A stretch of DNA of 63,759 nt, filler included, from Aduncisulcus paluster (GCA_024181965.1; 14 parts of 14 records of this genome joined end to end with filler, not necessarily neighbours in it), one strand, 5' to 3'; shown: positions 32,181 to 61,359, counted from the whole stretch's first letter. Notes: generated by a model not told the origin, from the letters alone. Translations and numbers: made by a program.

Positions 32181-33236
32181 TTATTTCCATGGAAGTAGAG
32201 ATAATCGTTCAGCTGCAATGATTTCCTCGGGCATAGTAAATACAAGGGAGTGTATCCAGAAATCTCGACTATTCTTATCATCCCACTTTCCTTTCCCTTC
32301 AACCTCACACAATACAACGTTATCCAAATCAATAGGAAGGAAGTGCCATTCATATAAATTTTCAGGTCTTGTGAATTCATACTTCCTGGATGTCTCCTTA
32401 CCATCACAATCAGTGAAAGTGAAGAGAAGAGAGGGAGAACTCCAACTACAATGAACACAGATATAAGCACCTTTCATTGGACTAGGTGTGAAAGGGATGG
32501 AAATATGGGATAGTTCAACACAATCCTCTCCTTTTAACATTTTTTGTGCATCTGAACTCTGATCATACCCCTCAGATTCCTTACTATACACATCATCCTT
32601 GCACTTAACCATTGAGAATGAAGGATCTACAAGCTTTGGATCATCTCGTGGAATGGGAATAGAATATCTTCCTCCTTCCTTAACAAACTCTGGTTTCACA
32701 ACTTGAGCTTCAGACCAAAGTTTCTCTCTGGCTTCACGAGATTTGATTTCTTCAGGAGTTTCTTCTCTAATGAAAACAAGGGATTCGATTCCAAAACACT
32801 CTCTCCTTCTTCCTTTCCCTGTAATCTCACACAGAACAACATCAGGGAGATCAACAGGAAGGAAATACCAATGTGCATCTTCAAATTCAGGAAATTCGTA
32901 TTTCTTTGATGTTTTCTCACCCTTTGAAGACGTGAGAGTGAAGTTAAGATGCGATGGAGGTGAAGGATCACCATGTAGACAGATATAAGCCCCTTTCATT
33001 GGGGAAGATGAAGAGAAAGGAATGGAGATATGGGTATATTGTCCATAATTACAGTCTCCTTTCATCATCCCTTGTGCTATATGGGTATCATACCCGACAA
33101 GATGATCTTGTCCACAATTACCCTGTGCACTCTTAACATTGGGGGAATCTCTAGGAATTGGACAGCAATTGATATATCCTTCATGAACAAACTCAGGTTC
33201 CACGGTTTGAATAACAGCATCTGTGGATGAACTCAT
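32181..33236 (-). CDS. MSSSTD family tandem DOC/APC10-like domain protein, short form (copy A)
   Basis: Two internal repeats (HISIPF..SPMKGAYIC..S.L.FT.T...G.KTS.KYEF...W.FLP.DL..VVLCE..GKG..F.I.SLVF); paralogous to 42606, 57692 and 60253. Confidence 0.85.
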   Translation of the reverse strand: MSSSTDAVIQTVEPEFVHEGYINCCPIPRDSPNVKSAQGNCGQDHLVGYDTHIAQGMMKGDCNYGQYTHISIPFSSSSPMKGAYICLHGDPSPPSHLNFTLTSSKGEKTSKKYEFPEFEDAHWYFLPVDLPDVVLCEITGKGRRRECFGIESLVFIREETPEEIKSREAREKLWSEAQVVKPEFVKEGGRYSIPIPRDDPKLVDPSFSMVKCKDDVYSKESEGYDQSSDAQKMLKGEDCVELSHISIPFTPSPMKGAYICVHCSWSSPSLLFTFTDCDGKETSRKYEFTRPENLYEWHFLPIDLDNVVLCEVEGKGKWDDKNSRDFWIHSLVFTMPEEIIAAERLSLLPWK

Positions 33237-33842
33237 TTGAATAGAGATAGAATTTCTTATCTAAAAAAAACAAAAACAAGCAGAATAATGAATGAATCCG
33301 GTTAAAATATTTCTTAATATGCATTTAACAAAAGAAATGACATATATTAAACATACAATTTGCTTGTACGACGAGAAAAAATGGAGGACTGAACAAGCAA
33401 CTCTTCAATAGATAAGATTGGAAAATTAAAAAAACACATATAAACGAGTTAAATGCTGGTAAATGATAAAAACATGTTTTATTTTCATTTCCATGCCATG
33501 GTGTTTATTCTCGATATCTCAGGCTTTTGGAGAACCCTCAGGACTGGATATAGTTCCATTTCACGTGTTAAGAACATTTATGAACGATTTCAATGCTATT
33601 CAATAACATGGATATATTTCCATTTCATTTCTATCCTTATCCTTGCCTTTCTGTTCATTTTCACTTGCTTTTGCTTACAATCAAAAATATCAAGAACTCG
33701 AAATACGATGGTATACATATGTCTGTATACATATGTCTGTATACTGCTACGAATCTAATCCCCTGATGCTTCATGGAACATGACATTTCCCCGCAGTCAA
33801 ATCCAACTCCAACTCCAAATCCAACTCCAATTCCAATGCCAG
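33237..33842 (-). repeat. Conserved ~600-bp leader of the MSSSTD cassette (copy A)
   Basis: Reverse complement of 42020-42605, including the TTGGAG-type hexamer run. Confidence 0.92.
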
Positions 33843-33942
33843 NNNNNNNNNNNNNNNNNNNNNNNNNNNNNNNNNNNNNNNNNNNNTTAATTAATTAANN
33901 NNNNNNNNNNNNNNNNNNNNNNNNNNNNNNNNNNNNNNNNNN

Positions 33943-37428: not shown

Positions 37429-37528
37429 NNNNNNNNNNNNNNNNNNNNNNNNNNNNNNNNNNNNNNNNNNNNTTAATTAATTAANNNNNNNNNNNNNNNN
37501 NNNNNNNNNNNNNNNNNNNNNNNNNNNN

Positions 37529-39395: not shown

Positions 39396-39443
39396 TTGTG
39401 CTAGTTTTGTGCTAGTTTTGTGCTAGTTTTGTGCTAGTTTTGT
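39396..39443. repeat. 11-bp tandem repeat (TTGTGCTAGTT) x4
   Basis: Four perfect consecutive units. Confidence 0.92.
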
Positions 39444-41829: not shown

Positions 41830-41982
41830 NNNNNNNNNNNNNNNNNNNNNNNNNNNNNNNNNNNNNNNNNNNNTTAATTAATTAANNNNNNNNNNNNNNN
41901 NNNNNNNNNNNNNNNNNNNNNNNNNNNNNCGCCTCGTGCTGAACTTGTATGACAAATGCCACCCAATTGCAAAGATACGGAA

Positions 41983-42605
41983 CACAAATCTCAGTATTAA
42001 ATGTATCAAATGATCAGGATCTGGCATTGGAGTTGGAGTTGGAGTTGGAGTTGGAGTTGACTGCGGGGAAATGTCGTGTTCCATGAAGCATCAGGGGATT
42101 AGATTCGTAGCAGTATACAGACATATGTATACCATCGTATTCCGAGTTCTTGATATTTTTGATTGTAAGCAAAAGCAAGTGAAAATGAAACAGAAAGGCA
42201 AGGATAAGGATAGAAATGAAATGGAAATATATCCATGTTATTGAATAGCATTGAAATCGTTCATAAATGTTCTTAACGCGTGAAATGGAACTATATCCAG
42301 TCCTGAGGGTTCTCCAAAAGCCTGAGATATCGAGAATAAACACCATGGCATTGAAATGAAAATAAAACATGTTTTTATCATTTACCAGCATTTAACTCGT
42401 TTATATGTGTTTTTTTAAATTCCAATCTTATCTATTGAAGGGTTGCTTGTTCAGTCCTCCATTTTTTCTCGTCGTACAAGCAAATTGTATGTTTACTATA
42501 TGTCATATCTTTTATTAAATGTATATTAAGAAATATTTTAACCGGATTCATTCATTATTCTGCTTGTTTTTATATTTTAGATAAGAAATTTATATCTCTA
42601 TTCAA
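41983..42605 (+). repeat. Conserved leader of the MSSSTD cassette (copy B) with 5' boundary CACAAATCTCAG, (TTGGAG)n and a putative 5'-UTR intron at 42487-42580
   Basis: Near-identical to 49205-49679, 57243-57691, ~59620-60252 and the reverse complement of 33237-33842. Confidence 0.92.
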
Positions 42606-44365
42606 ATGAGTTCATCCACAGATGCTGTTATTCAAAATGTGGAACCTGAGTTTGTTCATGAAGGGGATTGGTCTTGTTGTCCAATTCCTAGAGATGCCCC
42701 CAATATTAAGAGTGCAGAGCTTCCAACTATCAAAGCAATAGCTGTAACTGATAAAAAGTCCGATCAGAGTTCTAATGCACAAGATATGATGAAAGGAGAG
42801 TGGAATCGAGGATATTTTACCATATATGGAACCAAGGAAGAAGGTGATGAAAAGTACGATCAGAGTTTTGAAGCACAAGATATGATGAAAGGAGAATATA
42901 ACAGTGGACAATTTACCCATATCTCCATTCCTTTCTCTTTATCTTCCACAATGAAAGGGGCTTATATCTCTCTATATGGTTATACTTTATCTCCATCACA
43001 CCTTATCTTCACTCTAACATCTTCAAAGGGCGATAAAACATCCAAGAAATACGAGTTTCCCGAATTTGAAGATCATCATTGGTATTTCCTTCCTGTTGAT
43101 CTCCCTGATGTTGTTCTGTGTGAGATTACAGGGAAAGGAAGATATAAAGAGTATTTTGAAATCAAATCACTTGTTTTCATTAGTAGAGAAGAAACTCCTG
43201 AAGAAATCACATCTCGTGAAGGCAGAGAAAAACTATGGTCTGAAGCTCCAATTGTGAAATCAGAGTTTGTTAAGGAAGGAGATGAAGAATCTTTTGGTAG
43301 AGGTTCTATTCCCATTCCACGAGATGATCCAAAGCTTGTAGATCCTTCATTCTCAATTGTTAAGTGCAAGGATGATTCGGTGAGTAAGGAATCTGTGTAT
43401 TATGATCAGAGTTCAAATGCACAAAAAATGTTAAAAGGGGAAGATAGTGTCCACTTATCCCATCTTTCCATCCCTTTCCCATCACCTAGTCCAATGAAAG
43501 GTGCTTATATCTGTGTGAATAAGTATTTGAGTTCACCCTCTCTTCTCTTCACTTTCACTGATTGTGATGGTAAGAAGACATGCAAGAAGTATGAATTCAC
43601 AAGACCTGAACATGGATATGAATGGCACTTCCTTCCTATTGATTTGTATAATGTTGTATTGTGTGAGATTGAAGGGAAAGGAAGGTGGTGTGATAAGAAT
43701 AGTCGAGATTTCGACATCGAATCCCTTGTTTTCCTTCGAGGTGATGATATTCCCACCTCTCCTCCTCTTCTTACTCCTGTTCCTGTTCCTTCCAGTTCCT
43801 CCAAGACACCCACATCAACTTTGTCTTTGCCATCAAAACCTGTGAAAGAAGAAGAAGAAGAAGAAGAAGTTGTTATTAAAGGAAATGATAAGGATCCAAG
43901 ACCAAAAGACACCAAACCGAAGAAACATAAGGATAAAAAGAAACATAACCCCAAGGATGGCAAGCCCAAGTATAACCCCAAGCACGACTCGCTAACCCTG
44001 ACATCTGCATCCACGCTGACTTCACAGTGCATCATTGGCAGTGGTGGGTTCGGAGAGGTTCTTCTTGTTCTTATTGATGGCATTCCTTTCCCATGTGTTC
44101 TGAAGAAGATGCTTCGGATTGCGGACAAAACTGTTGTGAAAGGGTGTCGGAAGGAGTTTAAAGTGCAACTCAAGTTGTTTACGAATCCCAAATGTTTCAA
44201 CCGTATCCCACGTCCTCTGTATATCCTTGACCTGCTTGATTGCGATATGAAAGGTGTGTATGGCTTCCTGATGGAGTTCTGTGTTGGAGGCAGTGTGAGT
44301 GCGTTTGCCAAGCGTTGGTGTGCTGATGGCAAGTATGTGAGTGTTGATGATACTGCTGATGATAG
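42606..44365 (+). CDS. MSSSTD family tandem DOC-like domains fused via a P/E/K-rich linker to a protein kinase (copy B, 3' partial)
   Basis: Same N-terminal domains as copies A, C and D; from ~43984 IGSGGFGEV, CVLKKML, RIPRPLYILD, GVYGFLMEFC.GGSVSAFAK.WC closely match the kinase at 335-1633. Confidence 0.9.
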
Positions 44366-44465
44366 NNNNNNNNNNNNNNNNNNNNNNNNNNNNNNNNNNN
44401 NNNNNNNNNTTAATTAATTAANNNNNNNNNNNNNNNNNNNNNNNNNNNNNNNNNNNNNNNNNNNN

Positions 44466-46440
44466 TACATACCAATCAGCTGCATCCACGACAGTGTCGC
44501 ATACAACTGCTCTCTCGGCTGGTCCTGACACTCGTCTTGGACAACAGGCTTTCTCTGAACAAGAATTCACGCCAACCCATGCCGAAAACCAACTTAAACA
44601 TGCACAAGCTGATGTGAAACGGTCCATGGAGGACCCATCGCAGCCCATGCACCAGGTTAAGCATCCCACCCGTGGAAGGAGCCGTGTGAACCCTGAAGAG
44701 ATCATGAGTATGCATGGCTGCATTGGAGTGTACAATGGACATGGTTTCTCGAAGGATGGAGATAAGAAGTATGGTGTCTGTGGATGTCCCTATGATGGGG
44801 AACTCAGTGCTATCGAAAAGGGAAGGACAAGTGGTCGCAAGAAGCAAGAATTCCAACCGTTCAAGAAAATGAAGGATGTGGGATCACCTGAAATTCTTCA
44901 ACAATACACAATATTCTATAATCAATGCCTCGCTTTTCCATTATCCGTCAAAGAAGATAGAACTTGGGGAGTTTCTCAGGCTGAAGTCGCTGGTGAGAAA
45001 CTGTGGAGTTGTAAACGGCCTGCGTATGGTTTTTCTTCCTTGCCTTCTGCAGTCTCCCTCCATGTTCGTGGTCACGACATTGCCACAGCCGCTGATGTGA
45101 GTGCTGATGGTAGTCTTGTTGCATGTGCGTTTGATGGCACTGGTGAGGTTTTTATTTGGCAATTGGATGAAAAGAATGAAGATGACACTGATGCTGAAGA
45201 AGCTGGCGATATCGGTGGGAAACGTAGACTCATCGGTGGTGCTCCCACTGCTCCAGGTTCTTCCCAATCCTCCTTTCACTCGACTCCATTCGGAAGTCAA
45301 ACGGAGGACCATCTATTCTTTGGCGGCAATGTCATGTCAATGTCAGCCCAACAACCTTCCATGGGAATGGCTGAGAAACGCCATGCTCCAGGTGCTGTTC
45401 CTTCTGCCCAGGCCTCATCTTTCTCCTTCTTTTCATCATCATCTGCACCTCTTCGTTCCTCAGCCGCACCCAAACGCCCTTTCACCATTGCTCCACCAAT
45501 AGTCCTTCCATGTCATTCTTCTGCCGGCATTCTCTCCCTTAAGGTGTCACACGACGGTAAGCATGTTCTCACTGGTGGAGTTGATGGAACTGTTCGCATT
45601 TCTGATGCAGAGATGGGTGTGCAGACCTCGTACAAATATGTCGATGGTTCCACAGCTTATAGTCTTGTTCGCAGTGTGGATTGGTGTCCAGGTGACCATG
45701 CTTTCTGTTGTGGAGGAGATAACATGTGTGTTAAGCTTTTTTACACACATACTCATCAACCACTTCGGATTTTTGTGGGTCACAAGTCCCCTGTTACTGT
45801 GAATAGGTTCCATGCCAGTGGATCTCTTGTCATGAGTGGATGTATGGATGGTTCAATTCGTATGTTTGATCTTAGGACTGGAATGTGTGTAAGACACTTT
45901 GAGGGTCACATGGCCGCCACAAGTGCTCTCGCTTCATCTCGGGATGGCAGACTCATGGTCAGTGGAGACAGGGACGGTCGTGTTTGTATCTGGGATGTTG
46001 GGATGGGAAGGATTTTAGGAGTTAATCAGGCACATACGAGTGCGGTCAGTTCCATTGATTTTGATAGAGATGATAGAATATTTGTCACTGGCAGTCGGGA
46101 TAGCTGTGTCCGCCTCTGGCATTCTAAATTATTGCGCCATGTTTGTGACATTGCACCTTCATCCCAATGCGGATACAAGAGCCATGATACTGAACAAATC
46201 AAAGCTGTTCACTCTCGTTTCATCCAAGACTATCTTCACGGTGATCCTGACGATACAGAGAGCATTCCTTATCCTTTGGACCTCTCAACAATGCTTCCAA
46301 AGATGGGAATTGGAAGATATGTAATGCAGAGAAGCGTACCATTATGCACGAAATTTATTAGGAGTGGTTCTTTGATGTGTGTTGGGAATTCATTCAGCTT
46401 AAAGGAATGGAGACATATGAGTGACCAAACTGGTCTATAA
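44466..46440 (+). CDS. TAF5: TAF5-like WD40 subunit of TFIID/SAGA (5' partial)
   Basis: LPSAV, SADGSLVACAFD, QPLRIFVGH, FHASGSLVMSG..DGSIRMFDLRTG.CVR.F.GH, FDRD..IFVTGSRDSCVRLW follow the TAF5 blade order. Confidence 0.8.
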
Positions 46441-47061: not shown

Positions 47062-47357
47062 NNNNNNNNNNNNNNNNNNNNNNNNNNNNNNNNNNNNNNN
47101 NNNNNTTAATTAATTAANNNNNNNNNNNNNNNNNNNNNNNNNNNNNNNNNNNNNNNNNNNNATACCACTATTTTTAGTGGTATTACCATAAAAAATTTCT
47201 GGAATGGTATTACCATGGTAATACTTTTATTCGGAACGCTAGTGTTGTTGATGAAAGGATCAAGTCATGGGGCAAAATATGCGAGAACCCGGTTGTAACT
47301 GGGTTTTCAAGCGAGACATTCAGAGATGAAGAGTGGACTCACAATCTGTCAGGTGGA

Positions 47358-48790: not shown

Positions 48791-48809
48791 GACGGGTGGA
48801 TAAAATGGA

Positions 48810-49204: not shown

Positions 49205-49679
49205 CACAAATCTCAGTATTAAATGTATCAAATGATCAGGATCTGGCATTGGAGTTGGAGTTGGAGATGGAGTTGGAGTTGGAGTCGACTGCGGTGAAAT
49301 GTCATGTTCCATGAAGCATCAGGGGATTAGATTCGTAGCAGTATACAGACATATGTATACCATCATATTCCGAGTTCTTGATATTTTTGATTGTAAGCAA
49401 AAGCAAGTGAAAATGAAACAGAAAGGCAAGGATAATGATAGAAATGAAATGGAAATATATCCATGTTATTGAATAGCATTGAAATCGTTCATAAATGTTC
49501 TTAACACGTGAAATGGAACTATATCCAGTCCTGAGGGTTCTCCAAAAGCCTGAGATATCGAGAATAAACACCATGGCATGGAAATGAAAATAAAACATGT
49601 TTTTATCATTTACCAGCATTTAATTCGTTTATATGTATTTTTTTTAATTTTCCAATCTTATCTATTGAAGGGTTGCTTG
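49205..49679 (+). repeat. Conserved leader of the MSSSTD cassette (copy E; gene lies beyond the contig end)
   Basis: Starts CACAAATCTCAGTATTAAATG and is near-identical to 41983 onward. Confidence 0.92.
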
Positions 49680-49779
49680 NNNNNNNNNNNNNNNNNNNNN
49701 NNNNNNNNNNNNNNNNNNNNNNNTTAATTAATTAANNNNNNNNNNNNNNNNNNNNNNNNNNNNNNNNNNNNNNNNNNNN

Positions 49780-52177
49780 TGGGCAAGTGGATTGGTTAGA
49801 TGCAGTGAGGGTGGTTAGATTTGTGAAATACGATTGGAATGACATCACGACGGAATTAATGTCACAGATGGAGTTGCCACTGATATTCAGAGAAGTCAAA
49901 GAATCGCCAGGGAAGATAGATGATGTGATGAGAACAGATACATCAGAGATGGAGTTGTTTGAGAGATCTAGGGATGTCAATTTGAATTGGTCTGTGGTTG
50001 AGTCTCCATTAGCAATTGGAGTCAAGTCAAGCACATCACTGATAGCACTCAATCCACATCCACTCGCAGATAGTATCCTCAGACCAGAATCAATGGTTCC
50101 AGACGTCACAGCCTTTGCCAAGATCTGAACAACCAACTTATCATACTCAGCGTTGGAATTAATATCTCCACTCAAGTCATACCCATCAAGGGTCAGAGAG
50201 GTCAATGAAGTGGCATACTCAAGACCTTGCAGGGTCGTGATGGAATTCAGGGATATCCCCCTATCTGTGGCAATGGAAGGAATCGACAATGAAGTACATG
50301 TCAAAACACTCCTCATCGTGGCAACACTGATGACACCATTTGATTCAACATCACTAGTGGAAAGACACTGATCCTTCAGATATTGTCGAATTGAATCATC
50401 ATGAACAGTGTAACACTCACCATTGTCACCTTCCTTCGCAATGAATGCACATTGTTTCTCGTTCACACCATCCACACTGTTGTACACCTCATTCAGAACT
50501 ATTGAAGGGCATGAAATATTTGAAGTATCACAGTTATATGGGGAATTTCCAGGATTAGAGTTGAGAGGACAGCTATTGGGAATAAAGTATTTATCCTTAT
50601 CGGTTGAGGAATGAATTGGAAAGACAGTCGTTATAAATGTCCAATAATCGGTATCATCTTCTGATCTACAGAGAGGCGTGAATTCAGAATAATTTGTATA
50701 CGCAATATACATCTTAGACAATCCAACATTCCTAAATGAGACAGATATATCATAGATTTGTTCATTCCCATAAATTGTCAATCTATACAATCTATTCAAT
50801 GTGAATAAGGAATTGAGATCATAAATATTGACATTATAGGTAGTTGAAGTCTGATTAAAAGATAAGCGTGATTGTTGTTCAAGGAAAGAAATAGGATAAA
50901 CTGATGTTACATCTGTATTTGCTCCATGGAAAAAATACAAGTTTATCAAATACTGAGCACCTTCAACGGATGTAATATGGGAACCAGATGACTCAAAATA
51001 CCCATTTATACCAGCCATCTCAAATTCTGTGACATCACACAATGGATCGACTGTAATATCATATCCAGCAGCATCACACACTTTACCTCTGAACAACCCA
51101 TCTGGAATATACACTTGATACAATTGATCACAATCATCTCCATACCATGCAGCTCGACATCCACATGTGATGGATGAAGCTCCTTCCTCAAGAACAGGCA
51201 TCATATTGGAATGGCCTTCACATACTTGGACACGAATGGCATCATCAACAGAGGCACTCATATATACACAAGTTCCACTTTCAGTATCAAGTTCAGAGCC
51301 ACTATCACATGCAGCAACACACTCTCCAGTCGATTTGTCGAGATAGTACCCATTCCAGCACTCAACAGCCCATTGATCGGGATACACTTCACGACACACT
51401 TGGTGGTCAGAAGAAGACACAGATGCAGAACAATAGCATGTTTGGTCAGAATATGCCAAGGTTGATAAGGTTGGGAATTCGGTTTGCAATTGACTCACAA
51501 TTCCTTCAATGTCACAGATGTTGTTATCACTGATGTTAAGAGTTGTGAGAACAGCATCAGTATCTTCGGGAAACATGGAAGATGTGATGAGAACAGACAC
51601 ATCTGAGATGTTGTTGTTGGAGAGATCAAGGTATGTCAGTTGAAAAGATTTGGTTGTATAGTCCTCAGCAACTACTGAAGTCAAGTCAAGGATATCACTG
51701 ACACTACTCAACGCACATCCACTTGCAGATAAAGAGGTAAGACCAGAGTTAAGGGTGTCGTATTTAACTGATTTTGCCAAGATTTGAACCACCAATCTGT
51801 CATATTCAGCATTGGTGTTAATTTCTCCACTCAAGTCATAGCCATCAATGTTGAGAGATTTTAAGCCAATGGAATTATTTGAAGAATCAATTCCTTGAGA
51901 ATACTCAAGACCTTGCAGAGTCGTAATGGAATTCACAGATAATAGTGACATGGATGTTACAATACTAGATAGGTTCAATGAGGAACAACTCAGAGAACTC
52001 CTCAATGTGGCAACACTAATCATCCCATTGGATTCAATATCAGAACTAATCAGACATCCATTGGCGGGATCAGACAAATAAGCACGAATATTATCATCAT
52101 GAATGGTATAACATGTGAGATCACCATCATCAACAGAGCCACTCGTCTTTGCAATGAAAGCACATTGTTTTTCATTC
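49780..52177 (-). CDS. Internalin-like LRR / EGF-like Cys-rich surface protein (internal fragment)
   Basis: Open across the whole contig; TTLQGLEY, LDGYDLSG, LDLSNNNISDVS, CREVYPDQWAVECW, CGCRAAWYGDDC, IPDGLFR; the module repeats within the ORF. Confidence 0.85.
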
Positions 52178-52277
52178 NNNNNNNNNNNNNNNNNNNNNNN
52201 NNNNNNNNNNNNNNNNNNNNNTTAATTAATTAANNNNNNNNNNNNNNNNNNNNNNNNNNNNNNNNNNNNNNNNNNNN

Positions 52278-54620
52278 ACGATGAACTTAGAACATACCTC
52301 TCTGATGAAACCAATTCATGTTTGACTGCCGATGACATTGAAACTAATGGTATCATCAGTGTTGCTACCCTGAGGAGTGCTCTCACCTGTACCTCGCTCT
52401 CCCTCTCTGATATTGTTTCCTATAGCTCAAACATCTCTGATGTTACAGAGCTCACCACACTTCAAGGTCTTGAGTATGCCACTTCACTGACCTCTTTGAC
52501 CCTTGATGGATATGACTTGAGTGGAGATACTAATTCTAACGCCGAGTATGATAAACTGGTTGTTCAGATCTTAGCAAAGGCAGTGAGTTATTCAAATGAT
52601 TATGGTTCCATTGATTCCGGTCTTACATCCTTGTCTGTCAGTGGGTGCGGGTTATCTGAAGTAAGTGATGTGCTGGATTTGACTCCAATTGCTTCTGCCG
52701 ATACATTAACACAGGTTTTCAAACTTGCTACGCTTGATCTCTCTGACAACTCCATCTCCGATGTGTCTGTGCTCATCACCGAGGATATCTTCCCTGCTGA
52801 TACTCTCGCTACTCTTGATATCAGTGGCAACAACATCTGTGACATTGATGGTATGGTGGATGAGTTAGAAACCTATTTTTCTGCTACTTCTATCGCGATT
52901 ACCTACTCTGACCAGACTTGTAATTGTACGATGCGCATAACTTCAGCATCACACGAAGTCTGCCGTGAAGTATATCCTGATCGTTGGGATGTTGAATGTT
53001 GGAAAGGATATTATTATGATGTTGACAATGAGAGTTGTGTTGAAGCAACTGCCACTGAAGATATTCTTCGTTGTCAAGTATGTGAGCGTAATTCCAAGAC
53101 AAGACCTGTTCTTGAATCTGGTGCTTCTGCCATCACATGTGGATGTCGTTCTGCTTGGTATGGTGATGATTGTGAGAGTTTGTATCAAGTTCATGTTCCT
53201 TCTCTCTGGTTGAGAAAAGGTATGTGCTATTATCTTGGGTATGAATTGACTTTATGTGATTTCTCTGAATTTGAAGCAGCTGGATATTCTGATTCAGTGT
53301 CTAACTCTGATGGATTTGCTTCAATCACAACTCCTGAGGGTCTTCACTATATGATCAATGTTAGTAATGTTACTTTGTTTAACATTTCACCAGTTTCTGC
53401 CCTTGAATTCTCTCTTATGCCTCAACTAACATCCCTCTTATATTTGGATAATTTCCCATCTGTTCATGATTTTGAGGTTTATGATTATCCAACGCCAACA
53501 ATGCATCGATTATCGACATTAGCTATTAGAGGATCAAATTTACTCTATGATATTTCCATGTTTTATAGAAATATAAAGATTGTTAGTTTTGGACTTGCTG
53601 ATACATCTTTGTCAACATACACTGTATACTGTCGATCTGAGGATGATGATACATTCCTTGACTATATTACCAATATTTTCGGACGTCTAACATCCGATTA
53701 TGCCACAGATTATGCTATCCCAAATGCTTGCTCTATCAACGATACTGATGTGTATTATTGCTCGAGTGATACGGAATGTCCCTCAATTGTAATTAACGAA
53801 GTATACAATCATTTCCTCAGCCAAAAAGAGTGTTCAACTATTTCCAAGGAAGGTGATAGTGGTGAATGTTACACAATCCATGATGATACTGTTCGTTCAT
53901 ATCTGACTACAAACTGTGGTGTCACCGCCGAAACGAATGGAGTGATCAGTGTTGCTAGTCTTAGGAGTGGGATGACATGTACTTCTCTGACTCTGACTGA
54001 TATTTCTGCTGATGTGACTGCTATCACTTCCTTACAAGGTCTTGAATACACTCAAGGTCTTGATACAGATGGTAATGTTGTTGGTCTGACAGCCTTAAAT
54101 CTCGATGGATATGATCTGAGTGGAGATAGTGATGTTTCTGAATATGATCAGATCGTTGTTCAGATCCTTGCTAAAGGTGATACTTTTTCAAATAGAAATA
54201 GTGTTTCTGTTGATATTGGTCTTACATCCTTGTCTGCTAGTGGGTGCGGGTTGAAATATATAAGTGATGTGTTGGATCTGACTCCGATTGCTTCTGCTGA
54301 TTCGTTAACACAACCATTTATGCTCTCCACTCTTGATCTCTCTGACAACTCTATCTCCGATGTGTCTTTATTCATTTCTGATGATATCTTCCCTGCTGAC
54401 ACCCTCACAACTCTAGATATTAGTGGTAACTACATTTGTGATGTTGATAATGTGAGTAGCGCTCTAACCTCTTCAATTTCCACTCTCTCTACTCTCACTA
54501 TAAATGATCAAAATTCATGTGCTTGTGGTTTCAATTCCTTATCATCCTCTGCAATCGCATTTTCTGAACATAGAACTTGTAGAAGGAGGTCTGATGGTCA
54601 TTATCAGGTTGAGTGCTGGA
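52278..54620 (+). CDS. Internalin-like LRR / EGF-like Cys-rich surface protein (internal fragment)
   Basis: Same ~520-aa module repeated about 1.5 times; open across the contig. Confidence 0.85.
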
Positions 54621-54720
54621 NNNNNNNNNNNNNNNNNNNNNNNNNNNNNNNNNNNNNNNNNNNNTTAATTAATTAANNNNNNNNNNNNNNNNNNNNNNNN
54701 NNNNNNNNNNNNNNNNNNNN

Positions 54721-57142
54721 CTCTGACCCTTGATGGGTATGACTTGAGTGGATATATCAATTCCAATGCTGAGTATGATAAGTTGGTTGTTCAGATCTTG
54801 GCAAAGGCTGTGACGTCTGGAACCATTGATTCTGGTCTGAGGATATTATCTGCGAGTGGCTGTGGATTGAGTGCTATCAGTGATGTGCTTGACTTGACTC
54901 CCATTGCTTCTGGAGACTCAACCACAGACCAATTCAAACTGACATCCCTAGATCTCTCAAACAACTCCATCTCTGATGTATCTGTTCTCATCACAGAATC
55001 GATATTCCCAAATAATTTCCTCACAACTCTTGACATCAGTGATAATAATATCTGTGATATTGAAGGAATGGTTGATGAATTGGAAACTTATTTCTCCACT
55101 GGAATCTCGATTACCTACTCAGACCAAACATGCCATTGTTCTGCATCCGTGTCTTCTTCTGACCACCAAGTGTGTCGTGAAGTGTATCCCGATCGTTGGG
55201 CTGTCGAGTGCTGGAATGGGTACTATCTTGACAAAGCCAGCGGAGAGTGTCTTGAGGTATGTGCGGGTGGGTCTGAGATTGATACTTCCAGTGGAAGCCC
55301 ACCATATCCATGCATAACAGCTGCTTCAGATGTTGATGATTCCATTCGTGTCCAAGTATGTGAAAGACATACCAATATGATGGCTGTTCTTGAAGTTGGT
55401 GATTCATCCATTACATGTGGTTGTCGATCTGCCTGGTATGGAGAAGACTGCTCGAGTGAGTGTCCAATTGTTGGAGGTGAAGTATGTTCTGGTCATGGAA
55501 GTTGTAACACCACCGATCATGCATGTGAGTGTGACACTTGGTATGACGATGCTTCATGCTCAACTCTTGTTCCGATATACTCCCCTGAATGTGATCGTAC
55601 ATTCACCATTGATGACCATTTGGAGTGCAATGAGGTATATCCTGGTCGTTATGCAGCCGAGTGTGAGGATGGGTATTATTATGACCAAGGAGAGTATTCT
55701 TGTGTTTATGACACCAATACTGACTGTCCCAATGATATGAATGATAATCAAATGTGTGTCAAAACAGCAGATGGTGATGTTATTACATCTGATTGTCGAT
55801 CTGCTTGGTATGGTGACGATTGTGACCAGTTGTATTCCGTTCATATCCCTGATACGTTGTTCAGAGGTAAAGTGTGTGATGCTATATGTAATAGTGATCC
55901 TCTTTGTGATGTCACAGAGTTTGGAATGGCTGGAATTATCGAGATTGAAACCAATGAAATTTATATTACATCATTTGTTGGTGTTGAATATTTGATCAAC
56001 ATATACAAATTCCATGCAAGAAATACATGGGCAACTTCCGTTAATTCTTTTTTTGGTCTTAAACAACTGAGTCTTATGTTTTTCAATATTAGAAATGAAG
56101 AATTTATTTATAATTCCAATATTTATGATCAAAATGATATATATTATCAAAGTAGATTATCTAAATTATTCATTTATGGAAATGAACGAATTTTCGATTT
56201 ATCTGTTGCATTTCGGAATATCGGGATGAAAATGTTAACTATCGGCTGCACACCCGACTCTTTTTTCATTCCCCTTTGTAGATTAGAGGGTGATATTGAT
56301 TATTTGGACTTTATTGCCGCAATATTTCCAATTCATAATACAATAACAACCACTGCAAACAGCTTTTTCCTCCCCAACAGCTGTCCTCTTAATATTGATC
56401 CTGGAAATTCCCCATATAACTGTAATACTTCAAATGCTTCATGCCCTTCAATAGTTCTGAATGAGGTGTTCAACAGTGTGGATGGTGTGAATGAGAAACA
56501 ATGTGCATTCATTGCGAAGGAAGGGAGCAGTGGTGAGTGTTACACTGTTCATGATGATTCAATTCGACAATATCTGAAGGATCATTGTCTTCCCACGAGT
56601 AATGTTGAATCAAATGGTGTCATCAGTGTTGCCACCATGAGGAGTGTTTTGTCATGTCCATTGGATGCTAATAGTAATGAGTCATTGTCACTTCCAGACA
56701 TAGCTTCTGCAGCTTCCTTAAGTTCTGTGAATTCCATCACGACTCTGCAAGGTCTTGAGTATGCCACTTCACTGACCTCTCTGACCCTTGATGGGTATGA
56801 CTTGAGTGGAGATATTAATTCCAATGCTGAGTATGATAAGTTGGTTGTTCAGATCCTGGCAAAGGCTGTGACATATTCGAATGATTATGGAACCATTGAT
56901 TCTGGTCTGAGGATATTATCTGCGAGTGGCTGTGGATTGAGTGCTATCAGTGATGTGCTTGACTTGACTCCCATTGCTTCTGGAGACTCAACCACAGACC
57001 AATTCAAACTGACATCCCTAGATCTCTCAAACAACTCCATCTCTGATGTATCTGTTCTCATCACAGAATCGATATTCCCAAATAATTTCCTCACAACTCT
57101 TGACATCAGTGATAATAATATCTGTGATATTGATGCTGTGGT
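54721..57142 (+). CDS. Internalin-like LRR / EGF-like Cys-rich surface protein (internal fragment, extra EGF modules)
   Basis: Includes tenascin-type EGF CSGHGSCNTTDHACECDTWYDDASC; 54721-55060 recurs almost identically at ~56780-57135. Confidence 0.85.
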
Positions 57143-57242
57143 NNNNNNNNNNNNNNNNNNNNNNNNNNNNNNNNNNNNNNNNNNNNTTAATTAATTAANN
57201 NNNNNNNNNNNNNNNNNNNNNNNNNNNNNNNNNNNNNNNNNN

Positions 57243-57691
57243 AAAATGAAACAGAAAGGCAAGGATAAGGATAGAAATGAAATGGAAATATATCCAAGTT
57301 ATTGAATGGCATTGAAATCGTTCATAAATGTTCTTAACACGTGAAATGGAACTATATCCAGTCCTGATGGGTCTCCAAAAGCCTGAGATATCGAGAATAA
57401 ACACCATGGCATGGAAATGAAAATAAAACATGTTTTTAGCATTTACCAGCATTTAACTCGTTTATATGTGTTTTTTTTAATTTTCCAATCTTATCTATTG
57501 AAGAGTTGCTTGTTCAGTCTGTTGGCGGCTAAGCACCGATGTCCATTTTTTCTTTGCAAACGAGCAAATTGTATGTTTACTATATGCCATATCTTTTATT
57601 AAATGTATATTAAGAAATATTTTAACCGGATTCATTCATTATTCTGCTTGTTTTTATATTTATTTAGATAAGAAATTCTATCTCTATTCAA
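57243..57691 (+). repeat. Conserved leader of the MSSSTD cassette (copy C, 5' cut by contig end)
   Basis: Near-identical to the other leaders, with a short insertion at ~57519-57541. Confidence 0.9.
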
Positions 57692-58810
57692 ATGAGTTCT
57701 TCCACAGATGCTGTTATTCAAACTGTGGAACCTGAGTTTGTTCATGAAGGATCGGGGGGATGTTGTCCGGTTCCTGGAGATGCCCCCAGTATTAAGAGTG
57801 CGGAGTTTCCAACTATCAAAGCAATTAATGGAACCAAGGAAGCAGGGGAATGTGGGTACGATCAGAGTTCTAGTGCACGAGACATGATGAGAGGAGAGGT
57901 TAATTATGGACAATTTACCTATATCTCCATCCCTTTCTCATCATCTTCCCCAATGAAAGGGGCTTATATTTGTCTTGATGGTAGATCTTATTCTTCACCT
58001 CCATCACACCTTATCTTCACTCTCACATCTTCAAAGGGTGATAAAACATCCAAAAAATACGAATTTCCTGGATTTGAAGGTTTTCATTGGCATTTCCTTC
58101 CTGTTGATCTCCCTGATGTTGTTCTGTGTGAGATTACAGGGAAAGGAATATATAGCAAGTATTTTAGAATCATCTCCCTTGTTTTCATTGGTAGAGAAGA
58201 AACTCCTGAAGAAATCAAATCTCATGAAGCTAAAGAGAAACTATGGTCTGAAACTCCAGTTGTGAAACCAGAGTTTGTTAAGGTGGGAGGTATAAAAGAT
58301 GGCTTTGGATCTTTTGATAGAAAATCTATTCCCATTCCACGAGATGATCCAAAGCTTGTTGATCCTTCATTCTCAATGGTTAAGTGCAAGGATGATTTGG
58401 ATAGTAAGGAATCTAGGGAGTATGATCAGAGTCTAAATGCACAAGGAATGTTAAAAGGGGAATGTGGTGTATGGCTATCTCATCTTTCCATTCCTTTCCC
58501 ATCACCTAGTCCAATGAAAGGTGCTTATATCTGTGTGGGTAAGGTTGATAGTTCACCCTCTCTTCTCTTCACTTTCACTGATTGTGATGGTAAGAAGATA
58601 AACAAAAAGTATGAATTCACAAGACTTGAACATATATATGAATGCTACTTCCTTCCTATTGATTTGGATAATGTTGTATTGTGTGAGATTGAAGGGAAAG
58701 GAACGTGGAATGATGAGAAAAGTCGACATTTTTGCATCCTCTCCCTTATGTTTACTATGCCCGAGGAAACCATTGCAGCTGAACGAGTATCTCTTCTTCC
58801 ATGGAAATAA
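57692..58810 (+). CDS. MSSSTD family tandem DOC-like domain protein, short form (copy C)
   Basis: Intact 372-aa ORF with two internal repeats, ending AAERVSLLPWK. Confidence 0.87.
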   Translation: MSSSTDAVIQTVEPEFVHEGSGGCCPVPGDAPSIKSAEFPTIKAINGTKEAGECGYDQSSSARDMMRGEVNYGQFTYISIPFSSSSPMKGAYICLDGRSYSSPPSHLIFTLTSSKGDKTSKKYEFPGFEGFHWHFLPVDLPDVVLCEITGKGIYSKYFRIISLVFIGREETPEEIKSHEAKEKLWSETPVVKPEFVKVGGIKDGFGSFDRKSIPIPRDDPKLVDPSFSMVKCKDDLDSKESREYDQSLNAQGMLKGECGVWLSHLSIPFPSPSPMKGAYICVGKVDSSPSLLFTFTDCDGKKINKKYEFTRLEHIYECYFLPIDLDNVVLCEIEGKGTWNDEKSRHFCILSLMFTMPEETIAAERVSLLPWK

Positions 58811-59405
58811 TTCAAGAAATGGTATAAAATGCTAATATTCTGTGAAGAATAATAAAAAAAAAAGTACCTGTTTTTATTTCTGGGGTCTTTATTCTAGATT
58901 GTTGGACAAAATCCCTATGTCATAGGGCCTATGGGTTGGAAATGGAAGTCGAATGCAATGCATTCAATGTATTGTCCCGGAAAGAGATTCTCAAACGGGT
59001 TTTGAGAACTTTGATTTCTGAGCAAGAGAAAATATATCTAAAACCCAATAAAATCAATTCGTTTGTTCTTTTCAAGCGTTATTTCTTGATTCTTAATAAT
59101 TCAACATCAAATATGAGAGTGGAATCAGGTGGAATAGAATCGCCAGCTCCACGGCTGTCGTGATTGATTTAGCTGCAAGAAAATATAATAAATTTGCTAG
59201 CCCGACTTATTTTATAGTCGTTAACACGGGTACCATAACCATAATCAGGATCGATTTGATTACAATCATGGCTCTTTCACCAACACTTAATGTAAGAAAG
59301 GCTTCATCCCAAACACTGATAACCATACCCATTCCAACTGCAAATCCAAAAACCTACGATATCACTTTCCATGATTGTCACATTGTCAATCTGGGGTGAA
59401 ATAGT

Positions 59406-59472
59406 ACAAAGCTCAGTATTAAATGTATCGTATGATCAGGATCTGGCATTGGAGCATTGGAGTTGGCATACC
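59406..59472 (+). repeat. 5' end of another MSSSTD cassette leader (copy F)
   Basis: ACAAAGCTCAGTATTAAATGTATC..ATGATCAGGATCTGGCATTGGAG matches 41984 onward. Confidence 0.85.
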
Positions 59473-59618
59473 NNNNNNNNNNNNNNNNNNNNNNNNNNNN
59501 NNNNNNNNNNNNNNNNTTAATTAATTAANNNNNNNNNNNNNNNNNNNNNNNNNNNNNNNNNNNNNNNNNNNNTTTATATTGAATTTCAACTGAATTCCCT
59601 ATAAATCGATTCGTTGTG

Positions 59619-60252
59619 CAGGATCGGGCATTGGAGCGTTGGAGTTGGGTGGAATGAAATTGGAGTTGGATTTGGAGTTGGAATTTCATTCGGATTTGAC
59701 TGCGGTGAAATGTCATGTTCCATGAAGCATCAGGGGATTAGATTCATAGCAGTATACAGACATATGTATAGCATCATATTCCGAGTTCTTGATATTTTTG
59801 ATTGTAAGCAAAAGCAAGTGAAAATGAAACAGAAAGGCAAGGATAAGGATAGAAATGAAATGGAAATATATCCATGTTATTGAATAGCATTGAAATCGTT
59901 CATAAATGTTCTTAACACGTGAAATGGAACTATATCCAGTCCTGAGGGTTCTCCAAAAGCCTGAGATATCGAGAATAAACACCATGGCATGGAAATGAAA
60001 ATAAAACATGTCTTTATCATTTACCAGCATTTAATTCGTTTATATGTATTTTTTTAATTTTCCAATCTTATCTATTGAAGAGTTGCTTGTTCAGTCCTCC
60101 ATTTTTTCGATTTCTCGTCGTACAAGCAAATTGTATGTTTACTATATGTTGCATCTTTTATTAAATGTATATTAAGAAATATTTTAACCGGATTCATTCA
60201 TTATTCTGCTTGTTTTTATATTTTTTAGATAAGAAATTCTATCTCTATTCAA
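59619..60252 (+). repeat. Conserved leader of the MSSSTD cassette (copy D) with putative 5'-UTR intron 60133-60228
   Basis: Near-identical to the other leaders downstream of a degenerate TTGGAG run. Confidence 0.9.
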
Positions 60253-61359
60253 ATGAGTTCATCCACAGATACTGTTATTCAAACTGTGAAACCTGAGTTT
60301 GTTCTCGAAGGACCTCGGTGGTGCTGTCCAATTCCTGGAGATGCTCCCAATATTAAGAGTGCAGAGTTTCCAACTATCGAAGCAATTAATGGAACCAAGG
60401 AAGAAGGTGATGAAAAGTACGATCAGAGTTCTAAAGCACAAAAGATGATGAAAGGAGAGAATAATGATGGACATTTTACCCATATCTCCATTCCTTTCTC
60501 TTCATCTTCCCCAATGAAAGGGGCTTATATCTGTCTACGCAATTATCTTTCTATTGATTCACCTCCATCACACCTTATCTTCACTGTCACATCTTCGAAG
60601 GGTGATAAAACATCCAAGAAATATGAATTTCCTGAATTTGAAGGTTTTCATTGGTATTTCCTTCCTGTTGATCTCCCTGATGTTGTTCTGTGTGAGATTA
60701 CAGGGAAAGGAAGAAAGACAGAGTATTTTAGAATTCAATCCTTCGTATTCATTAGTAGAGAAGAAACCCCTGAAGAAATCACATCTCGTGAAGCCAGAGA
60801 GAAAATATGGTCTGATACTCCAGTTGTGAAACCAGAGTTTGTTAAGGTGGGAGATAAAGAATCTAAAGGTAGAGATTCTATTCCCATTCCACGAGATGAT
60901 CCAAAGCTTGTAGATCCTTCATTCTCAATGGTTAAGTGCAAGGATGATGTGTATAGTAAGGAATCTGAGGGGTATGATCAGAGTTTAGATGCACAAAAAA
61001 TGTTAAAAGGAGAGGATTGTGTTGAACTATCCCATATTTCCATCCCTTTCACACCTAGTCCAATGAAAGGTGCTTATATCTGTGTTCATTGTAGTTGGAG
61101 TTCTCCCTCTCTTCTCTTCACTTTCACTGATTGTGATGGTAAGGAGACATCCAGGAAGTATGAATTCACAAGACCTGAACATTTATATGGATGGTACTTC
61201 CTTCCTATTGATTTGGATAACGTTGTATTGTGTGAGATTGAAGGGAAAGGAATGTGGTATAATAAGAATTGTCGAGGTTTCATAATCTACTCCCTTGTAT
61301 TTACTATGCCCAAGGAAACCATTGCAGCTGAACGATTATCTCTATTTCCATGGAAATAA
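60253..61359 (+). CDS. MSSSTD family tandem DOC-like domain protein, short form (copy D)
   Basis: Intact 368-aa ORF ending AAERLSLFPWK; second domain nearly identical to copy A. Confidence 0.87.
   Translation: MSSSTDTVIQTVKPEFVLEGPRWCCPIPGDAPNIKSAEFPTIEAINGTKEEGDEKYDQSSKAQKMMKGENNDGHFTHISIPFSSSSPMKGAYICLRNYLSIDSPPSHLIFTVTSSKGDKTSKKYEFPEFEGFHWYFLPVDLPDVVLCEITGKGRKTEYFRIQSFVFISREETPEEITSREAREKIWSDTPVVKPEFVKVGDKESKGRDSIPIPRDDPKLVDPSFSMVKCKDDVYSKESEGYDQSLDAQKMLKGEDCVELSHISIPFTPSPMKGAYICVHCSWSSPSLLFTFTDCDGKETSRKYEFTRPEHLYGWYFLPIDLDNVVLCEIEGKGMWYNKNCRGFIIYSLVFTMPKETIAAERLSLFPWK

Follow-up and report, generated by a model that had tools for sequence, protein, structure and literature searches.

A hypervariable galactose-binding-like domain family in Aduncisulcus paluster: a candidate germline repertoire of cytosolic, often kinase-linked recognition modules

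Four gene copies on four contigs

The window analyzed here is a stretch of 63,759 nucleotides from Aduncisulcus paluster, a free-living anaerobic protist of the Fornicata, and consists of separate contigs that are chained by N44-TTAATTAATTAA-N44 spacers. A tblastn search with P0003 as query identifies exactly four copies of one gene in it (57692-58807, 60253-61356, 42606-43733, and 33236-32184), which reside on four contigs (57243-59472, 59573-61726, 41930-44365, and 31081-33842, respectively). The copies are 75-81% identical in pairwise comparison, with differences confined to short patches. The search and the comparison of translations thereby recover what the initial annotation had described, namely four paralogues with a near-invariant scaffold and about ten differing short sites. 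The four genes do not form a physical cluster: each lies on its own contig with spacers in between, so that the 29 kb span is not one locus. Nor is the copy at 42606 an intact two-domain gene, as its reading frame enters the spacer and belongs to a kinase-type member that is incomplete at the contig end. The genes and the pieces next to them are as follows:

31993..32067, minus strand: relic 3′ of the P0001 stop, a second copy of the C-domain end followed by a decayed kinase-linker start
32181..33236, minus strand: P0001, stand-alone two-domain member, 351 aa from the MSSSTD start (N domain 32748-33215, C domain 32229-32702)
42606..44365, plus strand: P0002, kinase-type member truncated by the contig end
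42627-43205, plus strand: N domain of P0002, containing a 28-residue internal duplication
43251-43742, plus strand: C domain of P0002
43743-44365, plus strand: low-complexity linker and kinase N-lobe of P0002
57692..58810, plus strand: P0003, stand-alone two-domain member, 372 aa (N domain 57713-58213, C domain 58259-58762)
59406..59472, plus strand: pre-leader start of a next unit, about 600 nt past the P0003 stop
60253..61359, plus strand: P0004, stand-alone two-domain member, 368 aa (N domain 60274-60777, C domain 60823-61311)

The MSSSTD two-domain proteins end in a conserved short tail. The relic downstream of P0001 matches 43688-43765 in the kinase-type member P0002 at 84.6% identity. 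The pre-leader piece behind P0003 is 92-93% identical to 41984-42042 and 49206-49264, which hints at a head-to-tail arrangement of units.

Leader, 5′ exon, and intron

The four genes share a leader of 450-600 nt that is 90-96% identical by blastn and diverges by 0.025-0.049 when substitutions only are counted. The near-identity of the leaders claimed earlier therefore stands. Their description as non-coding holds in part, as a 5′ exon and an intron of about 100 nt lie inside the leader:

33237..33835, minus strand: P0001 leader (promoter region, 5′ exon, intron)
33357-33439, minus strand: coding part of the 5′ exon at the P0001 locus, with a 101 nt intron at 33256-33356 (GTATGT..AG)
42022..42605, plus strand: P0002 leader, putative intron 42487-42585
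49205..49679, plus strand: fifth leader copy, an orphan at the terminus of another contig; the gene itself is lost where that contig breaks off
57243..57691, plus strand: P0003 leader, truncated by the contig start, intron 57571-57672
59655..60252, plus strand: P0004 leader, coding part of the 5′ exon 60044-60132, intron 60133-60233

Splicing of the 5′ exon to the P0001 reading frame yields exactly the deposited model P0076 (385 aa), and splicing at P0004 yields exactly the deposited model P0020 (404 aa). P0002 has no upstream in-frame ATG because of a 1 nt insertion in exon 2. The orphan leader is 96% identical over 432-475 nt (blastn). No Rfam match was found for the P0004 leader at E up to 1, and a 19 nt pair is the sole repeat found within the leader. 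An antisense reading frame of 101-125 aa in the leader is 73-97% identical between copies and rich in Phe, His, Ile, and Tyr; the underlying DNA is about 95% identical, and the frame was not taken as a gene.

Fold and relation to known domains

Structure models reach a pLDDT of 91.4 for the two-domain protein and 80.9 for a single domain, and each half is predicted by them to take on a galactose-binding-like β-sandwich. With the single domain, Foldseek places APC10/DOC1 first (E 1.1e-4, TM 0.52) and F5/8C and CBM32 next, with a probability of 1.00 and TM values of 0.5-0.6. VIA-align superimposes 117-137 residues at Z 10-11.9 and an rmsd of 2.4-3.4 Å on CBM32, DOC (HECTD3, APC10, HERC2, CUL7), IFT25, muskelin, and PITH domains, and F5/8C (discoidin) ties with these. 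PITH structures score Z 9.7-10.5; the four proteins have no Pfam PITH match. The ESM Atlas gives weak leads to CBM32 and F5/8 type C (scores 0.80-0.83). The initial annotation had assigned each half to a DOC/APC10-type jelly-roll; both structure searches support the jelly-roll class, whereas nothing points to DOC in particular, as CBM32, IFT25, muskelin, PITH, and F5/8C score on a par with it and a Pfam match is lacking.

On the sequence level, the DOC/APC10 Pfam model has no match in the four proteins by hmmscan at E up to 1, nor in 107 further members at a stricter E, and PF00754 and PF18344 (CBM32, F5/8 type C) likewise have none at E up to 1. At that threshold, the sole Pfam listings for these proteins are JHD and DUF3615, which lie far under the cut-offs and are noise. 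A Dyp-type peroxidase, the best PDB-sequence profile match at E 0.25, was taken as chance. The domain is a new sequence family of the galactose-binding-like fold.

The domain shares its fold class with CBM32, F5/8 type C, DOC/APC10, PITH, IFT25, and the muskelin N-terminal domain, and it forms tandem pairs as in ZmpB CBM32-1/2, neuropilin b1b2, and factor V/VIII C1C2. In galactose-binding-like domains, one end of the sandwich carries the ligand-binding loops. The A. paluster family differs from the known representatives by its hundreds of paralogues with hypervariable loops. Its context also differs, being probably cytosolic and kinase-linked, whereas the known domains belong to secreted enzymes, E3 ligases, or IFT complexes.

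Family size and kinase fusion

A family profile search returned 168 matches of 204-651 aa and 169 clusters at 50% identity. Each protein contains 1-11 near-complete domains of about 165 residues. In a sample of 20 matches, all 19 real database relatives checked stem from A. paluster. The only match from elsewhere, the ENA record P0241, is a tandem-repeat reading frame whose score is made up of ten weak partial matches, and it is no relative. In the DNA run, 8568 pieces at an identity of at least 95% map to 2.2 kb. The summed depth amounts to 1e5-2e6, whereas of the eight copy-specific pieces listed, seven have a depth of about 1200-1750 and one of 2707. The flank downstream of P0003 is likewise high-copy. 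Judged from these sequence counts, the family appears to be very large and, among the relatives checked, restricted to A. paluster. It is not described in the titles and abstract openings listed for A. paluster or for kinase gene family expansion in Carpediemonas-like organisms, and the body of the A. paluster genome announcement makes no mention of it.

A Pkinase domain is fused to the C-terminal end in 18 of 30 long members and is found in 9 of 33 distant members. GxGxFG and HRD motifs occur in all three members inspected and DLG in two; the kinases contain long inserts, and one of the three inspected is without DLG. For the most part, the domain forms the N-terminal portion of protein kinases with several domains, a link that the first reading of the sequence had missed and that is the main clue to signaling. 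Thioredoxin, also C-terminal, is attached in 2 of 44 mid-length members.

The thioredoxin fusion and the presence of DOC (APC10, HECTD3, HERC2, CUL7, BIRC6) and PITH domains among the best structural matches could be taken to mean that the proteins are substrate receptors for protein turnover or redox control. DOC- or PITH-like domains would then pick varied protein substrates for ubiquitin ligases, the proteasome, or thioredoxin, with fusion to a kinase as just one output among several. This explanation is improbable, as a scan of 107 further family proteins revealed no cullin, HECT, RING, proteasome-related, or APC/C ubiquitin-ligase domain and showed Pkinase as the recurring partner, and as carbohydrate-binding modules score equal to DOC. 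The domain order is also the opposite of the known one, in which thioredoxin precedes PITH.

Where the variability sits

In 76 two-domain members, 52-54 alignment columns have an entropy of at least 2 bits. These columns form five patches per domain at equivalent places in the N and C domains, and identical positions are hypervariable across 417 distinct domain instances. Among the sequences compared, the variability appears clearly localized. Each patch exists in 59-73 distinct versions among the 76 members, and 2710 of 2850 pairs have none of the ten patches in common. The other 140 pairs share 1-10 patches, mostly one; 139 of them share 1-5, and the single pair sharing all ten was taken as two forms of the P0001 locus. 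The indels, which had been described as frame-preserving, keep the frame in all 76 aligned models.

The five patches of a domain are taken to lie at the surface, four of them as loops and the fifth on the outward side of the last strand, while the core and three turns are constant. Hypervariable turns alternate along the chain with the conserved turns SSSPMKG, SSKGD, and DLPD, and the last patch follows the alternating pattern x-F-x-I-x-S. Tyr (3.7-fold), Trp (2.9-fold), Asn (2.8-fold), and Asp (2.2-fold) are enriched at the variable sites, and Pro is depleted (0.08-fold). We infer that the patches jointly form one binding face.

Selection on the variable sites

The site classes for the dN/dS calculation were defined on 72 other members and then applied to the four DNA copies. 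In the hypervariable codons, dN is 0.55-1.0 and dS 0.15-0.35, and dN/dS exceeds 1 in six of six pairs (2.6-5.4, Fisher p 8e-4 to 0.03); these are six non-independent pairwise Nei-Gojobori estimates from four DNA copies, and the variable class comprises about 25 synonymous sites. The scaffold codons give 0.18-0.34, which indicates purifying selection. The variable sites also change 20-30 times faster than the leader, so both suspicions voiced beforehand, of coding loops that outpace the adjacent non-coding DNA and of localized sites with dN/dS above 1 (in the pairwise estimates, 6/6), are borne out.

A neutral origin of the pattern deserves consideration at this point. Unconstrained loops, combined with gene conversion that homogenizes scaffold and leader, could create functionless variability in proteins with an ordinary housekeeping role, for example as structural or scaffolding partners of kinases. 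Many 60 nt windows of scaffold and leader are indeed 95-100% identical in DNA next to windows of 60-80%. P0001 and P0004 look like a mosaic, although a short-read chimera is possible: the two genes share 480 nt at 98-100% and diverge elsewhere, and their C domains are 98-100% identical in DNA. Pooling of the site classes, moreover, brings the whole-gene dN/dS near 0.8. Gene conversion of the scaffold would lower the scaffold dS and inflate the contrast between the classes, but it leaves dN > dS inside the same codons unexplained. There, the 2.6- to 5.4-fold excess in all six pairs departs from the value of about 1 that is predicted by neutrality. The variable residues, strongly skewed in favor of Tyr, Trp, Asn, and Asp and against Pro, and the frame kept by every indel in the 76 aligned models speak against it as well, and neutral drift of the loops is considered unlikely. 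Segment exchange between family copies probably occurs in addition to selection.

Leader and gene might also spread together within a mobile element or a toxin-antidote-like system, with copy number and diversity reflecting intragenomic conflict instead of the recognition of outside targets. A conserved 600 nt flank on hundreds of copies, the high-copy flank 3′ of P0003, the extra leader copy at a contig end, and a retrotransposon gag fragment on a neighboring contig of the stretch would suit such a selfish repeat. It has little to recommend it in view of the purifying selection on the scaffold, the identity of the leader as the gene's own spliced 5′ region, and the downstream flanks that differ between copies. 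Furthermore, the 107 further family proteins scanned contain no transposase, integrase, or reverse transcriptase domain.

Transcription, read depth, and assembly

The family appears to be transcribed. Copy-specific pieces of P0003 occur with 0 mismatches in the RNA-like run X2, the RNA label of which is a guess; none of the sequencing runs listed as containing the sequence is recorded as RNA. The same run contains a joint 57570>57673 with GT..AG ends that is absent from the DNA run. Expression of copies, for which RNA data had been called for, is thereby seen at least for P0003, subject to the guessed label. Over 57393-57617, the relative depth of X2 is about 1000-fold lower, and two family relatives are present in a transcriptome-derived set. 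Other joints, such as 57975>58194 and 58148>58550, run between motifs that resemble each other in the N and C domains and were read as repeat cross-joins.

The A. paluster assembly was built from 150 bp reads and has an N50 of 4.6 kb and 25,863 contigs according to the genome announcement, and the combination of patches within a contig may thus be chimeric. All four contigs end in or near repeats. The paralogues could, in the extreme case, be chimeras or mis-assemblies of fewer genes, or allelic or somatic variants. This is very improbable, however: the most copy-specific stretch of P0003 (57771-57961) is matched with 0 mismatches by unitigs from the DNA run and, independently, from the RNA-like run. 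The depth of the listed copy-specific DNA pieces is even (1195-1746 for seven, 2707 for one), as fixed copies would give, and each variable patch is shorter than one read, which makes the dN/dS result independent of phasing. Somatic or retroelement-driven diversification is disfavored by an informal comparison, in which the even depth of the eight listed pieces and the indel variants fit fixed copies.

Location and proposed function

The absence of signal peptides and transmembrane segments noted initially agrees with a hydropathy scan, which detected no hydrophobic window of at least 1.6 in the three full two-domain proteins P0001, P0003, and P0004 or in the N-terminally extended P0076. This fits the cytosol as the most likely place of action.

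The reading preferred here, with a probability of roughly 0.55, holds that the family encodes cytosolic recognition modules, many of them linked to kinases, as a germline repertoire on which diversifying selection acts. Every copy would offer a different binding surface through its five varied patches, and the variety would be germline-encoded as hundreds of fixed gene copies and maintained by positive diversifying selection, probably plus segment exchange. In members with variable domains ahead of a protein kinase with intact catalytic motifs, binding may be reported by phosphorylation. The MSSSTD two-domain proteins would be kinase-less derivatives and probably serve as adaptors, decoys, or competitors. 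The targets are presumed to be variable and biotic, such as prey, parasites, selfish elements, or non-self cells.

A bolder version of this proposal, which is speculative and on balance unlikely, sees an intracellular antibody-like repertoire in a free-living metamonad. Hundreds to a thousand or more germline "natural discobody" domains, with loops diversified by selection and reshuffled by recombination anchored in the conserved leader and scaffold, would be wired directly to protein kinases and would give a deep-branching eukaryote a new kind of innate recognition or immune system.

Comparison with known recognition systems

Large germline repertoires with hypervariable binding surfaces are a hallmark of recognition systems such as plant and fungal NLRs, lamprey VLRs, and invertebrate lectin families. 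To our knowledge, no such repertoire has been described for metamonads, and none with this fold on a soluble kinase. In plants, lectin-type and other receptor kinases form large families with lineage expansion and pair a diversified binding domain with a kinase of the serine/threonine type. The A. paluster family resembles them in its diversified binding domain, its kinase, and its lineage expansion but appears to be devoid of a signal peptide and of a membrane segment before the kinase, has another fold, and belongs to one protist only.

The het-d/het-e nwd family of Podospora anserina, fungal NLRs whose repeats show high internal conservation, has, as described in PMC1805685, a near-invariant scaffold with a few surface positions under positive diversifying selection and exchanges segments between paralogues. 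This repertoire is intracellular and germline-encoded, and the A. paluster pattern appears to be of the same kind, with segment exchange as a probable element. In the nwd family, which has 10 members, the scaffold is a WD40 propeller and four residues vary in each repeat; in A. paluster it is a jelly-roll with about 25 variable positions, length-variable loops, and hundreds of copies. The output is a NACHT/NB-ARC switch in the nwd family and a protein kinase or none in A. paluster. Allorecognition belongs to the nwd side of the comparison; the A. paluster family is known here from sequences and models.

If the preferred reading is true, the family would constitute a new natural binding scaffold and a clean case of loop diversification with a near-identical scaffold, intron, and promoter. 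It would also provide a handle on the sensing of prey, parasites, and non-self by a bacterivorous anaerobe. The "discobody" (PDB 4pt6), an engineered factor VIII C2 discoidin domain whose loops were, per the entry title, made into antibody-like binders, implies that the fold tolerates loop diversification. It is man-made, and the A. paluster family would be its natural counterpart; the structural match is moderate (Foldseek TM 0.51, rank 31). The family also explains part of the poor assembly of the A. paluster genome.

Family genes in the window

In the best-supported reading of the data, the MSSSTD proteins of Aduncisulcus paluster belong to a germline-encoded repertoire of soluble modules that serve recognition and are built on a galactose-binding-like scaffold. 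Positive selection would diversify these modules at one surface, many modules would be coupled to a kinase, and the window copies would be kinase-less derivatives. Variable biotic targets are favoured as what the modules may recognize.

By tblastn, the window contains exactly four copies with a mutual identity of 75-81%, which agrees with the four paralogues on a shared scaffold of the initial annotation. Three of them are complete two-domain ORFs. The fourth, also described as intact, runs off its contig halfway into a protein kinase that follows both domains and a low-complexity linker.

Family genes of the window and their contigs
32181..33236 (-), P0001, 351 aa, two domains; contig 31081-33842
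42606..44365 (+), P0002, kinase-type, cut by the contig end; contig 41930-44365
57692..58810 (+), P0003, 372 aa, two domains; contig 57243-59472
60253..61359 (+), P0004, 368 aa, two domains; contig 59573-61726

Treating 32181..61359 as a single 29 kb region is physically meaningless, as the four genes lie on four different contigs. The 63.8 kb window contains 13 joints, each made up of 44 N, TTAATTAATTAA, and 44 N, in addition to scaffold gaps of 20 N and is thus a chain of small contigs from 25.8 kb on. Any feature across a joint is an artefact, and so is any ORF that extends into the N runs.

Joints of the window (N44-TTAATTAATTAA-N44)
25840-25939
30981-31080
33843-33942
37429-37528
41830-41929
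44366-44465
47062-47161
49680-49779
52178-52277
54621-54720
57143-57242
59473-59572
61727-61826

Splicing the window DNA at the ~100 nt intron upstream of two genes gives exactly the deposited family proteins P0076 (385 aa) and P0020 (404 aa), which identifies the A. paluster draft assembly as the source. A. paluster is a free-living fornicate, and its draft (29.4 Mb, 25,863 contigs, N50 4.6 kb, 15,316 predicted proteins) was made from 150 bp reads (PMC9933649). The main text of this genome announcement does not mention the hypervariable family.

Pattern of variability

The differences between the four copies sit in the short patches listed in the initial annotation (five per domain, ten per two-domain protein). 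In an alignment of 76 two-domain members, 52-54 columns have an entropy of at least 2 bits. The variable residues of the N domain are 21-23, 49-74 (scattered), 96-102, 129-132, and 154-161 (P0003 numbering), and those of the C domain, which is 45-49% identical to the N domain, are found at matching places. Each patch occurs in 59-73 distinct versions among the 76 members, and 2710 of 2850 pairs have none of the ten patches in common. A domain profile applied to 269 retrieved proteins yields 639 domain instances, 417 of them distinct and near-complete. Across these 417, the most variable profile positions are again 15-16, 63-67, 89-92, 121-122, and 146/148/150/152, so the pattern belongs to the domain family as a whole and extends to its kinase-type members. 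Tyr (3.7x), Trp (2.9x), Asn (2.8x), Asp (2.2x), and His (1.8x) are over-represented in the variable columns, and Pro (0.08x) and aliphatic residues are depleted, a composition that is typical of protein binding sites. Length change inside a patch is exemplified by P0002, where a DQS..AQ.MMKGE.N.G motif is duplicated internally over 28 residues (about 46-73, 42700-42790) within the second variable region.

Selection on the variable sites

Site classes were set on 72 members excluding the window copies, and Nei-Gojobori counts were made on the four window genes. Diversifying selection at the variable sites, as initially proposed, is supported by the pairwise dN/dS values, which are based on four sequences only and on ~25 synonymous sites in the variable class.

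Pairwise divergence of the four window genes by site class
Hypervariable class, 52 codons: dN 0.55-1.00, dS 0.15-0.35, dN/dS 2.6-5.4
Scaffold class, 243 codons: dN 0.026-0.058, dS 0.11-0.22, dN/dS 0.18-0.34
Leader, 450 nt: K 0.025-0.049

The hypervariable dN/dS exceeds 1 in six of six pairs (one-sided Fisher p 8e-4 to 0.03, pairs non-independent). A rival explanation combines neutral loops with concerted evolution. Gene conversion of the scaffold is ruled out as the source of dN > dS because the excess is measured within the same codons. Conservation of the leader (the conserved stretch 5′ of each gene), with its intron, is 3-5 times that of the scaffold synonymous sites.

Predicted fold

An AlphaFold2 run on the 76-member alignment gave a two-domain model with pLDDT 91.4 and pTM 0.85. 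Foldseek and VIA-align concordantly place each half of the predicted model among the galactose-binding-like beta-sandwiches. The halves had been likened to DOC/APC10-type jelly rolls; the fold class is right, but DOC is not singled out. The best matches of the domain pair are the ZmpB tandem CBM32-1/2, neuropilin b1b2, factor V/VIII C domains, and allantoicase. For one domain, BF3416, CBM32 modules, DOC domains (HECTD3, APC10, HERC2, CUL7), IFT25, the muskelin discoidin domain, and PITH domains tie at Z 10-11.9 (rmsd 2.4-3.4 Å over 117-137 residues). With a single-domain model (pLDDT 80.9), yeast APC10/DOC1 ranks first (E 1.1e-4, TM 0.52), and F5/8 type C, CBM32, BIRC6, and factor VIII C2 are close behind. 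A rival role as substrate receptors for protein turnover has the DOC matches on its side and the tie of DOC with the other families against it. Judged by sequence, the domain stands alone: Pfam yields no family at E up to 1, no PDB sequence matches below E 0.25, and the Atlas gives weak leads only.

Along the chain, the hypervariable turns (96-102, 129-132, 154-161, and the segment leading up to residue 77) alternate with the strictly conserved turns SSSPMKG, SSKGD, and DLPD. The DSSP string contains two "strands" of 20-22 residues, each presumably a hairpin, since a single strand of that length would not fit so small a domain. If so, the variable and the conserved turns would come to lie at opposite ends of an up-and-down sandwich. 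In the last patch, variable and conserved residues alternate (x-F-x-I-x-S), a pattern that suggests a strand with one face exposed.

Family size and architecture

Searching with the 372 aa copy retrieves 168 relatives (204-651 aa) among 1960 scored candidates; 118 of 120 among the matches listed are A. paluster hypothetical proteins, and the remaining two are the window's own. The domain profile matches 169 proteins at E 1e-3 or better, 105 of them at 1e-30 or better, among 1.84 billion cluster representatives. Nineteen of 20 sampled profile matches, mostly from the weak end, belong to A. paluster; the twentieth was rejected as a tandem-repeat ORF.

In a public DNA sequencing run, 8568 unitigs match the 2.2 kb P0003 contig at 95% identity or more. 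The summed depth is 1e5-2e6 per bin and only 4241 in the most copy-specific bin, and single pieces reach ~1200-1750 in seven of the eight listed (2707 in one). Unitig count and summed depth point to hundreds of domain copies, beyond those assembled, although depth is not itself a copy number. Such multiplicity could also be that of a selfish or mobile repeat, a less likely rival, against which the purifying selection on the scaffold counts.

Family proteins contain 1-11 near-complete domains, or up to 15 in P0124 with partial matches included. Of 30 long members, 18 have Pkinase, as do 9 of 33 distant ones, and a kinase P-loop stretch precedes the contig end in 15 of 123 proteins (the window's four plus matches). 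A C-terminal thioredoxin is found in 2 of 44 mid-length members, PARP or LRR domains in single members. All three kinases inspected have GxGxFG and HRD, two have DLG, and long inserts occur. A hydropathy scan detects no hydrophobic segment between domains and kinase. Some deposited models of the family, namely P0044, P0054, P0071, and P0083, start with MG...S or MGC, which we take to resemble an N-myristoylation or palmitoylation motif; if lipidated accordingly, these members would be tethered to the membrane.

Further kinase ORFs occur in the window. The contig with 40701-41664 and 37538-38809 has one (Pkinase E 1.2e-28), along with ORFs that share 72-83% identity with the C-terminal helical region of P0161, a kinase-type member; this contig probably carries another kinase-type member or a fragment. 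A 432 aa kinase at 335-1633 is 51% identical to the P0161 kinase domain and represents either a family kinase without variable domains or one with its domains past a gap.

The C-domain end is repeated 3′ of the P0001 stop and followed by a decayed start of the kinase linker, and ~60 of the 123 proteins have in common a short tail ending in LLPWK. The stand-alone MSSSTD proteins thus look, from these sequence traces, like a subfamily that arose from kinase-type genes by rearrangement at the domain-linker border and then expanded. The pre-leader of another unit starts ~600 nt past the P0003 stop, and several deposited members among the matches listed apparently share contigs (same-size contigs, nearby locus tags), which makes local arrays likely.

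Of the known systems, the fungal nwd/het-d/het-e family comes closest in logic: four residues at the surface of its almost invariant WD repeat are under diversifying selection, and paralogues exchange repeats (PMC1805685). The title of PDB 4pt6, an engineered "discobody" of the same fold, indicates that the scaffold can bear antibody-like loops. The principle of a diversified germline receptor repertoire and the fold class are already known. The novelty lies in the sequence family, the way it uses the fold, its scale, the host lineage, and a kinase fused directly with no membrane anchor; the titles and abstract openings of the literature searched contain no description of the family.

Leader and transcription

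The ~600 nt upstream of the four genes and of a fifth, orphan copy (49205-49679, contig end) are 90-96% identical, and the divergence of the leaders, with substitutions alone counted, is 0.025-0.049. The leaders are therefore near-identical as described, but not entirely non-coding, as they hold a short 5′ exon and an intron. The intron (GTATGT..AG, 99-102 nt) ends 19-20 nt ahead of the MSSSTD start. The 5′ exon is in frame at two loci, shortened at one, and out of frame at one.

The P0003 contig was found in two public runs, the DNA run and X2, which was guessed to be RNA. X2 contains a joint 57570>57673 with GT..AG ends that is absent from the DNA run. Over 57393-57617, depth is 51-80 in X2 versus 3.3e5-7.4e5 in the DNA run, whereas X2 depth in coding bins is ~2-9% of the DNA run. 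This contrast argues well for X2 being RNA and for P0003 being transcribed. A transcriptome-derived protein set additionally contains two distant relatives. An assembly artefact is a further, unlikely rival: the short reads behind the draft speak for it, and the X2 pieces, which match the most copy-specific stretch of P0003 with 0 mismatches, speak against it.

X2 depth is coding-like over the initial 150 nt of the P0003 leader (57243-57392), and the next 225 nt are almost uncovered. The covered part could be either an additional 5′ exon or the end of an upstream neighbour's transcript. The deposited family protein P0008 begins with a small ORF at 57328-57420. Every leader copy also contains an antisense ORF of 101-125 aa.

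Antisense ORFs in leader copies
59713-60030 (-)
42014-42391 (-)
33453-33758 (+)
49302-49619 (-)

These ORFs are rich in Phe, His, Ile, and Tyr and 73-97% identical between copies, the DNA itself being ~95% identical; they need not be genes.

Other genes of the window

The aminoacyl-tRNA synthetase, Pumilio-repeat, and WD40 genes are ordinary eukaryotic ones and bear out the eukaryotic, intron-poor nature of the window.

Other ORFs of the window
9877-11235 (-), class II aminoacyl-tRNA synthetase
28737-30587 (-), Pumilio-repeat protein
44494-46440 (+), WD40 protein
49732-52077 (-), LRR protein
52322-54676 (+), LRR protein
54744-57194 (+), LRR protein
63212-63757, open-ended, weak retrotransposon gag match (E 6.3e-5, slightly short of the Pfam cut-off)

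The LRR ORFs (~780-816 aa) each fill one of three contigs end to end and may represent a second expanded repeat-protein family of the A. paluster genome.
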